From Pseudomonadota bacterium (GTDB lineage Bacteria; Desulfobacterota; Desulfobacteria; Desulfobacterales; JBDRRP01), in NCBI GenBank assembly GCA_043825735.1, contig JBDRRP010000027.1:62001-126000 (forward strand): DNA of 64,000 bases. The letters run 5' to 3'. Position numbers: made by a program. Shown in pieces: positions 45,001 to 48,000 of this stretch. Each line of letters opens with the position of its first letter. Position 1 is the first letter of the stretch.

Positions 45001-48000
45001 CCACCGGCTTTCAAGCAATCACAATCGCTTGTAAGGGATCGGCAAAGAAGGAGGGGAATGCCCGCTGCTTTACTGGAACGATAACGGCAGGATGCTAAAA
45101 GGAAACTTCCCGCCGCCCGAAGGCGGCGGGAAGCGGTCGATCATGTTACAGCGCTTTGATCTTGTATACCTGGTTGGAGTCCGGATCGATCACGTGGACC
45201 GCACAGGCGATACAGGGATCGAAGCTGTGGACCGTACGCAGGACTTCCAGCGGCCGTTTGGGATCGGCGATGGGTGTGCCGATAAGCGCCTCTTCCAGCG
45301 GACCCAGCTGACCCTTTTCGTCTCTGGGACCCAGGTTCCAGGTCGAGGGCACCACGTACTGGTAGTTCTTGATCTTGTCGCCTTCGATGACGCACCAGTG
45401 GCCCAGGGAGCCGCGGGGAACGTCGTTGAGGCCGACGCCTTCGCCGTGTTTCGGGAACTCCCACGGGGCGACCGTAGCGGTGTTGCCGCTCTTGAGGTTG
45501 CCGATGAGCTCGCCCATCCACGCACCGATGCGGTCGCCAACAGCGACGGTCTCGATGCCGCGGGCGGCGGTGCGGCCCAAGGTGGAAAACAGCGCCGTCG
45601 CCGGTACGTTGAGGGTCTGGAGCACGGAGTTGACGATCGGCGCGATCTCCTTGTGTCCCTTGGCATAAGCCACCAGCACGCGGGCCAGCGGGCCGACTTC
45701 ACAGGCCTTGCCGTTGGCGCGCGGGGCCTTCATCCAGGTGTAGTCGCCGGAGCTCGGGTTGTATTTCGGGTCTTCCTTCAAAGGCTCGGTTTTTCCCTTG
45801 TAGGGATGCAGCGGCGAGCTCTTGTCGTACCAGCCGCGGGCCACGCTTTCGGTAACGTCTTCCTGCTTGGCCATCTGCGGATTGCCGATGTCGCGGTTGT
45901 AAACCACGCCGCGCGGCATGTAGAGGCTGTCAGGCTCGTTGGCCGTCTCGGGGAAATCGCCCCAGGCATGGAAGTTGGTGGTGCCGCCGATGCCGCCCCA
46001 ATCCTTGTAAAAAGAGGCCACGGCCAGCAGATCGGGGATGTAGACCTTCTTGACGAATTCCTGGGTTTCCTTGGTGATATAGAGGAACTCGGCCAGACGG
46101 TCGGGGGTGAGATCCCGCACACAGGACACACCGCCCACCACGAGAAACTGCGGGTGCGGGTTCTTGCCACCGAAAATGGCATGCATCCGCGCGGCTTTTG
46201 CCTGGAGACGCAGGGCCTCAATGTAGTGCGCGGCCGCCATCAGGTTGGCTTCCGGCGGCAGCTTGTAGGCCGAATGGCCCCAGTAGGCGTTCTCGAAAGG
46301 ACCGAGCTGGCCGCTTTCCACGAAAGTCTTGATCCGCTGCTGAACCTGCTTGAAATAGCTGGTGCCTCCCCACGGGGCTTCGCTGACATTTTCTGACAGG
46401 GTGGCGGTCTTTTTGGGATCGGCGCTGAGCGCGCTGACGATGTCCACCCAGTCGAGCGCATGCAGGTGATAGAAATGAACGATGTGGTCATGCTGATACT
46501 GCGCACCGTGCATCAGGTTTCTGATGAGCCGTGCATTGTCGGGAATCTTCACGCCAACTGCATCTTCGACTGCCCTCACCGAGGACAGAGAATGAATGTA
46601 CGTTCAGACACCGCAGGACCGGGCGACAAAATGCTGTGCATCGCGCGGGTCCCTGCCCTCGAGGATCATCTCAATGCCCCGGAACATCTGGCCGGAGCTC
46701 CAGGCGTTGACAACCTTACCGCCAGCCACCTCGACCTCTACCCGGAGGTGGCCTTCAATCCGGGTAATTGGATCAATCACAATTCTCTGGCCCATATTTA
46801 CTCCTCTCTTCTTCTGAAAAGAAATGGTTCGTTACCGTGACTTACATCTCCACGTAAAAGGGCGACATTTTGTCCCAGAAATTCGGTTCACTGCACCCGA
46901 TGCAGGGGTGACCGGCCTGAACCGGCCAGCTGGTGCCGTCGTTGAACTTGGCCACAGGGCAGTTGTTGTAAGTTTCGGGACCACGGCAGCCCAACTTGTA
47001 TAGGCAATAGCCCATGGCGGCTTCTTTGGAGCCGAATTCCGTAACGAACTCGTCGTTTTCGAAATGGGCGCGGCGCGGGCACTGATCGTGAATGGTCTTG
47101 CCGAAGGCAAAGAGCGGGCGGCCGAGATCGTCGAGGGCCGGCAGTTTGCCCAGCAACAGGTAGTTCACCACCGTGCCGACGAAATTGATCGGGTTCGGCG
47201 GGCAACCGGGGATGTTCAGGGTTTTGATGCCAAGGGCATCGGAAACGCCCTTGTAGCCGCCCGGGTTGGGCTTGGCCGCGGGAACGCCGCCGTATGCCGC
47301 GCAGGTTCCCATACAGATGGTCGCTGCCGCCTTGGGCACCACTTCCTTTGCTATGTCCAAAAAGCTCTTGCCGGCGACCTTGCCGTAACCGCCGTTGTAC
47401 TTGGTGGCAATGGAGCCTTCCACCACGCAGATGAACTTGCCGGCGTATTTTTCAACGGCATTGTGCAGGTTTTCTTCGGCCTGATAGCCGGAAGCGGCCA
47501 TGATGGTCTCATGGTATTCGACGGAAATGATCTCCAAGACCAGATCGTCGATCCACGGATACATGGACCGCAGCAACGCTTCGGAACAACCGGTGCACTC
47601 ACCAAAATGCAGCCACACCACCGGTGGACGCTGTTTCGGAGCAGCAAATACTTCCGCCACCTTGGGCACGTAGGCGGCGGAGAGCCCCATGGTCGCGGTC
47701 AGGGCAGTACAGAACTTCATGAAGTCCCGCCGCGAGACGCCCTTGCTCTCCAGCCTTTCGTAAAACGCTTTTTCCCTTTCCATCGGCACCTCCTTGATGC
47801 GATTAAAAGAACCTGATGATCGGATGAATCAATAGATTCCTCAATAAAACACCATCGATCCCCACGGATGATGATGAAGTTCTCTATACCGCCCGGATAA
47901 TCCTCAACTGTGTGGCGAAGGCCATACGACGAGACTGAAGCGAATGAATTAGGTTTATTTTATTAGGGCAACACGGCGTTCTAAGTCAATAGAAATCTTG

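Follow-up and report, generated by a model that had tools for sequence, protein, structure and literature searches.

A Group 1 periplasmic [NiFe] hydrogenase with a predicted selenocysteine at the Ni-Fe bridging position is widespread in the Desulfobacterales

In the 64,000-nucleotide stretch of contig JBDRRP010000027.1 analysed here (the window), the gene for the large subunit of a [NiFe] hydrogenase contains an in-frame TGA at a codon that specifies a Cys in homologous proteins. Is selenocysteine (Sec) inserted at this codon, and would selenium then lie between the two metals of the active site, or is the gene broken, wrongly sequenced or decoded in some other way? The question bears on a poorly sampled side of hydrogenase chemistry. 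In the classical [NiFeSe] enzyme HysAB, Sec is a terminal Ni ligand at the first position of the C-terminal DPUxxC motif. To our knowledge, [NiFeSe] hydrogenase chemistry has been worked out only with Sec as a terminal Ni ligand, and we know of no enzyme isolated from nature in which a selenolate links Ni to Fe.

Read-through translation gave a single frame with one internal stop (Table 1). The TGA, codon 64, lies in the sequence RSCGV-U-TYIH, at the second Cys of the RxCGxC motif, and the C-terminal motif, DPCIACAVH, has Cys throughout. The metal ligands are therefore C61, U64 (a UGA, with no Cys codon), C528 and C531; H534 is also present, and 15 residues extend beyond it. This confirms the preliminary description of the locus, in which the large subunit was split at a UGA in place of the second N-terminal Cys and the C-terminal motif was all-Cys. 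Gene calling with table 11 cuts the gene into two open reading frames, 46604-46795 (63 aa) and 45146-46579 (477 aa). PF00374 matched residues 39-534 along its entire length (model positions 1-508 of 508; E 1.2e-214), and codon 64 aligned with the second Cys of RACGVC in 1frf. The remaining two PF00374 matches of the genome were end-only alignments with Cys in both motifs, in agreement with the earlier statement that the paralogues have Cys at this position. This result also supports the claim that the gene codes for the only full-length group-1-type large subunit of the genome.

Table 1. Features of the hydrogenase locus, with positions counted along the window
Feature	Position	Strand	Support or remark
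[NiFe] hydrogenase small subunit, twin-arginine signal	46842..47789	(-)	PF01058, PF14720, TIGR00391 421 bits, TAT_signal_seq
[NiFe] hydrogenase large subunit	45146..46795	(-)	549 codons, one UGA read through; PF00374, best solved relatives 1frf/1h2a/2frv
In-frame UGA, codon 64 of the large subunit, predicted to be read as Sec	46604..46606	(-)	
Predicted SECIS-type hairpin CUGUCCUC-GGU-GAGGGCAG	46570..46588	(-)	8-bp stem, GGU loop 46580-46578
HyaD/HybD-type maturation endopeptidase	44179..44712	(-)	PF01750 3.6e-31; TIGR00072 136 bits
HypC/HupF chaperone	43956..44297	(-)	PF01455 1.4e-26; TIGR00074
HypF carbamoyltransferase	41635..43932	(-)	TIGR00143 788 bits
HypD	40161..41252	(-)	TIGR00075 465 bits
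HypE-like AIR-synthase-related protein	38748..39773	(-)	PF00586, PF02769; HypE name from position and domains only

The small subunit gene lies upstream of the large subunit gene; downstream, on the same strand, profile matches identified the maturation protease and hyp genes that had been reported there, namely those for a HyaD-type protease, HypC, HypF, HypD and a HypE-like protein. The true start of the HypC/HupF gene is probably internal, at MCLAIPS. The small subunit contains the sequence SRRDFMKF and ends in PFYVEM, without a C-terminal membrane anchor. The best solved relatives of the large subunit are the Desulfovibrio HynAB enzymes (1frf, 1h2a, 2frv), matched at full length with E values of about 1e-208 to 1e-204. 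They share with the system described here a Tat-type small subunit, both motifs and a C-terminal extension cut by a HyaD-type protease, but all four of their ligands, unlike those of this large subunit, are Cys. Family match, ligands and gene context together point to a Group 1 periplasmic-type [NiFe] hydrogenase, which we take to be Hyn or 1b-like from the presumed subgroup of the nearest solved structures. Sulfate reducers also have HysAB, likewise a periplasmic Ni-Fe enzyme and likewise with a single UGA-encoded Sec ligand, and we considered whether the protein could be a classical HysA. However, HysAB structures 2wpn and 1cc1 matched only residues 158/184 to 534/546 (E 1e-93 to 1e-97), the scores were under the NCBIfam cut-offs (401 bits against 780 for NF045518, the HysA model; 563 against 600 for NF033181) and the C-terminal motif is DPCIAC. 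This identity was rejected; the large subunit appears to represent a different subgroup with a different Sec ligand.

We then surveyed 401 genomes of the order, 264 of which matched the large subunit at E <= 1e-50, with 307 matches in all. The best 150 matches were fetched and 149 of them could be scored at the column of codon 64. One TGA was carried by 105 of the best 150, close to the two thirds estimated before. Among the 149 scored, codon 64 was TGA in 104, TGC in 36 and TGT in 9; the position, previously read in 8 of 12 loci, was the same in every one of the 104 TGA genes that could be scored. Thus, as expected of a selenoprotein, UGA 64 is aligned with Cys in homologues (104 TGA against 45 TGC or TGT). 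All 149 proteins have a C-terminal DPCxxC motif, and none has a stop codon, as for Sec, within it. By genome, the best matches scored divide into 103 with the Sec form and 45 with the Cys form, the Sec form spanning 32 of 44 families and 43 of 61 genera. The suggestion that, within the order, CxxU prevails in this orthologue is thus upheld (104 of the 149 best), and the gene for it is systematically split by gene callers. The large subunit, in which a predicted Sec takes the place of the second N-terminal Cys, fits the definition of an N-terminal CxxU [NiFeSe] hydrogenase given in PMC13582414.

The reading of UGA 64 as Sec implies a signal in the mRNA. A GGU-loop hairpin had been described 18 nt past the UGA. 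The hairpin, of 19 nt, is indeed present inside the coding sequence, while its spacing needs restating: it starts 15 nt past the UGA, which is +18 when counted from the U of that codon, and ends at +36. Among the 104 Sec forms the stem has 8/8 bp with a GGU loop in 94, 7/8 bp in 6, and 8/8 bp with GGC in 4, whereas in the 45 Cys forms it reaches at most 6/8 bp. The peptide encoded over the hairpin, HALSSVRAVE, is common to both sets. At the third-codon positions +20, +23, +26, +29, +32 and +35, however, the entropy is 0-0.14 bit in Sec forms as against 1.3-1.9 in Cys forms, and flanking third positions of the same Sec genes mostly show 1.1-1.8 bit. Likewise, the Arg codon in the hairpin is AGG in 100% of the Sec forms, and in 84% of the Cys forms it begins with C. 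In the alignment of the 104 Sec forms 99.2% of the cells are paired and one pair shows compensation, from U:G to G:U. Covariation is weak, with five of the eight pairs invariant across the 104 sequences, and a formal test is nearly uninformative because the stem hardly varies; the case for a SECIS element therefore rests on synonymous-site conservation. Folding of the single sequence did no better than shuffled sequences (z 0.27), and an Rfam scan of positions 45000-47000 at E <= 10 returned chance matches only (mir-887, asX3, HTT-AS1). A hairpin with a GGU-containing loop likewise follows the UGA of one selD gene of the genome. With G and U in its apical loop, the element after UGA 64 has the features of a bacterial SECIS-type stem-loop and probably acts as one.

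On the tree the two states are intermingled: at least 13 changes between Sec and Cys are needed, and supported branches require 9 of these. The frozen hairpin sites therefore reflect more than shared ancestry. At the same time, one hairpin sequence is common to all Sec forms, which argues for a single origin. We infer that Sec arose once and that at least 9 to 13 Sec/Cys switches, mostly losses to Cys, followed; these natural switches are ready-made pairs for comparison.

The genome has a canonical tRNA-Sec (G73), selA, selB and two selD genes, each with a TGA of its own; selA, selB, selC and selD, as required of a bacterium that makes selenoproteins, are thus all present. Of the 401 genomes of the order, 363 gave a SelB family match. 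The presence of SelB was rejected as a separator of the two groups, since a match at E <= 1e-60 was found in 94 of the 103 genomes with the Sec form and in 39 of the 45 with the Cys form. The 9 of 103 Sec-form genomes that gave no SelB match at that threshold have completeness values of 71-97%.

In structures of the D. gigas type, the second N-terminal Cys presumably bridges Ni and Fe. The Sec of N-terminal CxxU hydrogenases is "predicted to bridge" the two metals (PMC13582414). Together with the alignment to RACGVC of 1frf, this suggests that U64 is a metal-bridging ligand, and the confinement of the hairpin constraint to TGA genes suggests that Sec is inserted at UGA 64. The large subunit is most likely a selenoprotein, and we consider it very probable that a natural Sec occupies the Ni-Fe bridging position of this Hyn-type periplasmic hydrogenase, a proposal of the preliminary description that our results support. 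In such a scheme, Sec would be inserted at UGA 64 by the canonical tRNA-Sec, SelA, SelB and SelD, with SelB recruited by the hairpin downstream. Hyp-dependent cofactor insertion would be followed by removal of the 15 residues past His534 by the adjacent HyaD-type protease, and the mature enzyme, a soluble periplasmic protein exported by the Tat route and akin to the standard Hyn-type [NiFe] hydrogenases of Desulfovibrio, would have a mu-selenolate between Ni and Fe. Its physiological role may be H2 uptake coupled to sulfate reduction; the label of main uptake hydrogenase is what the gene content would suggest. Possibly, H2 uptake by many sediment and groundwater sulfate reducers is selenium-dependent.

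Could the same UGA be read in two ways, as Sec via SelB and tRNA-Sec or, under selenium scarcity, as Cys via a second set of factors? The selC*/selB*/cysS* set reported for this genome is present on another contig (C107:92540-95827) and has every hallmark published for such sets (Mukai et al., 2017, with parts from Desulfococcus biacutus; PMC5389517). The selC*, with selB* and cysS* after it, has A1:U72, U73, the anticodon UCA and an 8-bp acceptor stem. CysRS*, of 417 aa, matches positions 2-371 of 466 of TIGR00435 and only positions 1-25 of 57 of DALR_2, lacking the anticodon-binding part. The cluster is complete, all six genomes with a high-scoring CysRS* also hold the Sec-form hydrogenase, and Cys works at codon 64, because 45 orthologues have it. 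The six-out-of-six association is weak, however, against a base rate of 103/148, and four of the six genomes belong to one genus. Moreover, of the 401 genomes only 6 yielded a cysS*, while the Sec-type hydrogenase is in at least 103; a second SelB-like gene was seen in 45 of the 401, of which just 15 belong to the 103 Sec-form genomes. For the most part, then, the hydrogenase codon persists in genomes that do not have this set. A genome of the same genus (G062) has the Sec form with one SelB only and no CysRS* at E <= 1e-90. SelB* itself is only 29% identical to SelB and its RNA-binding wing is weak (28 bits against 67 for SelB-wing_3; no wing_2 detected), and nothing ties the cluster to the hydrogenase gene. 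Dual decoding thus seems unlikely to us; if it did occur, a single structural gene would give enzymes with either Se or S as the Ni-Fe bridging ligand.

That the UGA simply terminates translation, the locus being a pseudogene or coding for two separate polypeptides, would agree with the split made by gene callers and with the 477-aa fragment of a relative that is on record as a protein (P0022). But the TGA is kept at the same ligand codon, in an otherwise intact frame, in 104 orthologues from 103 genomes, all the other ligands and the maturation genes are intact, and the essential first Ni ligand lies in the N-terminal 63 residues. Nor does termination account for a hairpin constraint confined to TGA genes, and we regard a broken gene as extremely improbable. 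An assembly or sequencing error, conceivable in an assembly of 160 contigs, or a genome-wide reassignment of TGA is refuted: contig pieces of one groundwater DNA run, the likely source, show 0 differences over the region including the UGA codon, the same codon is found in 103 other assemblies, and among the ordinary stops of the window TGA ranks first, ending 22 of 38 Pfam-supported frames, and is therefore not reassigned.

With Sec at the bridging position as the preferred reading, the question is what is new about it. The type itself, presented as new in the preliminary description, is not: N-terminal CxxU was published in 2007 for FrhA of the Olavius delta-symbionts (Zhang 2007; PMC1976440) and in 2011 for two Group 1 sequences and one Group 3 sequence (Baltazar 2011, cited in PMC13582414). 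In the latest survey consulted (September 2026), the number of Group 1 sequences still stands at two. The published sequences have Sec at the same ligand position, with the same predicted Ni-Fe bridge, and their record is one of sequence. They appear there as exceptions, whereas here CxxU is the majority version of one Group 1 orthologue (104 of the 149 best matches, 32 families), with a conserved SECIS-type element. It is therefore the prevalence that is new. It appears to have gone unreported for Group 1: a literature search for a statement of it found none, and PMC13582414 treats Groups 1 and 3 as C-terminal-Sec groups, while also tracking selC*. The Group 4 [NiFeSe] variants (CXXU, UXXC and UXXU) resemble the form described here in having an N-terminal Sec by UGA read-through and a mosaic Sec/Cys distribution, but they are energy-converting membrane complexes and rare, at about 0.2% of sequences (PMC13582414).

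A literature search found no protein, selenium or activity results for any natural CxxU hydrogenase. The closest experimental counterpart is an engineered one, E. coli Hyd-1 C79U, a Group 1 enzyme with Sec at the equivalent second N-terminal Cys. This variant is active with a lower KM for H2, keeps 13% of the native H2 oxidation, the highest among four Sec variants, and loses nearly all activity at 10% O2 (Evans et al., 2021; PMC8020662). It differs in being artificial, with Sec inserted at UAG via EF-Tu, in an O2-tolerant membrane-bound enzyme (PMC8020662). The genes described here put natural counterparts of it on hand for study.

Named genomes were scanned as well (80 loci, for 10 of which the motif search mis-hit or gave no result), and no Sec form turned up in a cultured isolate; Desulfosarcina variabilis Montpellier and Desulfospira joergensenii have the Cys form. 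In a protein database search, full-length Cys forms ranked first. Contigs from RNA libraries of sediment and estuary, which derive from relatives and not from this organism, cover parts of the gene, among them the bin with the UGA. Associations of S463 (after PRG), F355, K547 and G305 with the Sec state were not upheld in independent-pair tests. Residue +3 is coupled to the Sec/Cys state, and this offers a first handle on other changes that accompany the ligand.

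Read-through translation gives a single frame of 549 codons, interrupted only by a TGA at codon 64. The context reads RSCGV-U-TYIH, which puts the TGA where the N-terminal nickel motif, RxCGxC, has its second Cys. In the C-terminal motif, DPCIACAVH, both cysteines (C528 and C531) are kept, with 15 residues beyond H534; the arrangement reported in the preliminary description, an in-frame UGA at the second N-terminal Cys with an all-Cys C-terminal motif, is thus confirmed. Translation with table 11 splits the gene into ORFs of 63 and 477 aa, and PF00374 spans the read-through protein end to end (E 1.2e-214). 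Contig pieces from the probable source sequencing run match the window across codon 64. Two other PF00374 matches in the genome cover the ends of the family only and have Cys at both motifs, so that no other full-length large subunit of the group-1 type was found there. The neighboring genes for aldehyde:ferredoxin oxidoreductase, ATP sulfurylase and the MvhD-fused oxidoreductase are sulfate-reducer gene content, and the TonB/FecCD/CbiZ cluster probably serves corrinoid or metal uptake.

Features of the hydrogenase locus and its surroundings, and of contigs C107 and C73 of the same genome (window positions unless a contig is named)
Feature	Position (strand)	Remarks
Hydrogenase large subunit	45146-46795 (-)	
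In-frame TGA, codon 64	46606-46604	
Codon 67	46597-46595	
Hairpin	46588-46570	
Small subunit		directly upstream of large subunit; twin-arginine signal, no membrane anchor
HyaD-type endopeptidase, HypC, HypF, HypD, HypE-like gene		downstream of large subunit, same strand
Aldehyde:ferredoxin oxidoreductase	49879-51831 (-)	
ATP sulfurylase	55193-56461 (+)	
MvhD (FlpD)-fused pyridine-nucleotide-disulphide oxidoreductase	58217-60553 (-)	
Long cluster	~10000-31600	TonB, ExbB, two TonB-dependent receptors, FecCD permeases, ABC ATPases, periplasmic binding proteins, CbiZ, FmdE-domain proteins
tRNA (selC*)	C107:92540-92631	anticodon UCA, A1:U72, U73, 8-bp acceptor stem
SelB-like gene (selB*)	C107, after the tRNA	641 aa; part of the Cys-inserting set
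CysRS (cysS*)	C107, after the SelB-like gene	417 aa; matches only positions 2-371 of a 466-position model
Double-cubane-cluster reductase and acyl-CoA-dehydratase-type activase	C107 (locus L006, 7932-9993)	directly downstream of cysS*
selD	C107:101127-102053	in-frame TGA; about 5 kb downstream of selC*-selB*-cysS*
selD	C73:10878-11801	in-frame TGA

The best solved relatives are the periplasmic [NiFe] enzymes 1frf, 1h2a and 2frv, from Desulfovibrio fructosovorans, D. vulgaris Miyazaki and D. gigas, respectively, matched over their full length (E 1e-208 to 1e-204). In contrast, the classical [NiFeSe] enzymes 2wpn and 1cc1 align with no more than the C-terminal two thirds of the query (E about 1e-94), and the NCBIfam model for HysA, the classical [NiFeSe] large subunit, gives 401 bits, below its cut-off of 780. 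Because of these matches, the predicted enzyme is best described as Hyn-like, with selenium at a different ligand, and not as a HysA orthologue. In all three [NiFe] structures, the residue aligned with codon 64 is the second Cys of R-x-C-G-V-C, which bridges Ni and Fe in structures of the D. gigas type. Selenocysteine (Sec) in an N-terminal CXXU motif is 'predicted to bridge Ni and Fe' (PMC13582414).

A canonical tRNA-Sec (G73) is encoded in the genome along with selA, selB and two selD genes, and the UGA of one selD is followed by a hairpin with a loop containing GGU. A SelB family match is present in 363 of the 401 genomes of the order (271 of the 279 of high quality). Of 38 Pfam-supported frames in the window, 22 end in TGA, which makes it the commonest ordinary stop there and excludes a genome-wide reassignment. 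The strongest evidence that the UGA is read as Sec is comparative, and comes from codon 64 of the orthologues and from the hairpin.

When the 401 genomes were searched with the read-through protein (E <= 1e-50), 264 were matched. The best 150 of the 307 matches were all fetched, and 149 were scored; L144 was left out because its sequence ends before the C-terminal motif. Among these best matches, codon 64 is TGA in 104, TGC in 36 and TGT in nine, and DPCxxC is found in 149/149. This bears out the earlier claim that CxxU is the common rather than the exceptional form in the order. The Sec genes (104) are spread over 103 genomes, and each of the 45 Cys genes is in a genome of its own; in the same set, the Sec form alone is found in 24 of 44 families, the Cys form alone in 12 and both in eight, the figures for 61 genera being 35, 18 and eight. 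Relatives bear source names (Desulfosarcina, Desulfobacteraceae, Desulfobacterales and Desulfatibacillum) that fit the order as named in the preliminary description. G344 holds two Sec-form copies, L038 and L091; they fall beside different families in the phylogeny, a placement that points to transfer or to contamination (the latter given as 6%).

The hairpin of the query, CUGUCCUC-GGU-GAGGGCAG, has 8 bp and begins 15 nt past the UGA. All eight pairs and the GGU loop are present in 94 of the 104 Sec forms; six have seven pairs, and four have eight pairs with a GGC loop. The 45 Cys forms never have more than six pairs. The peptide encoded across the hairpin is the same in both sets (commonest, HALSSVRAVE), yet six third-codon positions within the stem-loop have an entropy of 0-0.14 bit in Sec genes as against 1.3-1.9 bit in Cys genes; just beyond the hairpin, third positions in Sec genes mostly have 1.1-1.8 bit. 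Moreover, all Sec genes use AGG for the Arg in the hairpin, whereas 84% of Cys genes have a codon beginning with C there. Such nucleotide-level constraint, restricted to TGA-bearing genes, is what would be predicted for a SECIS. Formal covariation is thin (one pair, U:G to G:U), since five of the eight pairs are invariant; the hairpin alone does not fold better than shuffled sequence, and Rfam has no family matching it. We conclude that the large-subunit gene with its UGA is a real feature and, judged from sequence, almost certainly encodes a selenoprotein.

The account of a Cys-inserting selC*/selB*/cysS* set on C107 was correct as to the tRNA hallmarks, the SelB-like gene and the shortened CysRS, and the cluster agrees point for point with what the available part of Mukai 2017 describes (PMC5389517). 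A reading of the hydrogenase UGA as Cys through this set is possible but unsupported, and we regard it as improbable. Although all six genomes with cysS* have the Sec-type hydrogenase, the base rate among scored genomes is 103 in 148, and a single genus accounts for four of the six. A CysRS* scoring clearly above canonical CysRS occurs in only 6/401 genomes of the order, and in G062, of the same genus as the query genome, the Sec form is present and CysRS* is not. SelB* and SelB share 29% identity; in SelB* the third winged helix is weak and the second undetected. By our reading of the table, a second SelB-like gene is present in 45/401 genomes.

Reading as Sec remains preferred. When the 149 proteins were placed on a FastTree phylogeny, at least 13 changes of Sec/Cys state were needed, nine of them forced by well-supported branches; labels shuffled on the same tree give a mean of 38.7 changes. 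Because a practically identical 19-nt hairpin is found in every Sec gene, we infer a single origin of the Sec form and, as the direction of change, repeated conversion to Cys. A phylum sample of 401 genomes (14 of this order, counted from the matches listed) yielded 11 more matches with TGA at codon 64, in 10 genomes of other orders; the form is therefore concentrated in this order and not restricted to it. Three group-1 large-subunit genes of other orders, L168 (G653), L192 (G553) and L194 (G474), have TGA for both N-terminal cysteines (R-x-TGA-G-V-TGA), and L168 retains the same 19-nt hairpin; such UXXU motifs are termed 'previously unrecognized' and, in the available part of the source, reported for Group 4 only (PMC13582414). 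A second clade (L193, L195 and L197, in G627, G707 and G730) shares 54% identity with the query and reads RICGV-TGA-TTVH, with a hairpin unlike that of the query (CAGCUC-CGUGA-GAGCUG). In the Cys relative of this clade, L197 (TGT), the downstream sequence is unchanged, as would be expected for a recent Sec-to-Cys switch. In L174 (G623), the TGA at the ligand is accompanied by another where Trp is conserved (AY-TGA-GH); this is probably an error, or the gene is a decaying copy.

A CxxU motif was reported in 2007 for a hydrogenase alpha subunit of delta-proteobacterial symbionts (PMC1976440), and Baltazar 2011 is cited for N-terminal CxxU in three sequences, two of Group 1 and one of Group 3 (PMC13582414). 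Evans 2021 mentions 'purported examples' of a substituted bridging Cys, and made Hyd-1 C79U, which has 13% of native activity, a lower KM for H2 and almost no activity at 10% O2 (PMC8020662). In the Desulfobacterium autotrophicum genome one periplasmic [Ni/Fe/Se] hydrogenase is annotated, adjoining a protease and an aldehyde oxidoreductase (PMC2702500); here too an aldehyde:ferredoxin oxidoreductase gene lies upstream. For hydrogenase alpha subunits, the table of a 2026 review, as far as available, gives UxxC only (PMC13188914), and in our full-text literature search no source was found to describe the N-terminal form as common in Group 1. The query is another case of a kind known from sequences only and is not categorically new; what is new is the prevalence (104/149 among the best 150 of 307 matches), a defined SECIS and switching between Sec and Cys that has happened repeatedly. 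This is relevant to specialists in hydrogenases and selenium, because a natural bridging-selenolate enzyme would be both abundant and unstudied.

The residue three positions after the ligand, at codon 67, is Thr in 82, Ile in 22 and Val in none of the Sec forms, as against nine, three and 33, respectively, of the Cys forms. Of nine independent Sec/Cys pairs, seven to eight show a switch of this residue in the same direction and none in the reverse (p about 0.008, five columns tested). This coupling could come from second-shell adaptation of the protein or from a requirement of the SECIS spacer; every Sec gene has A at base +9.
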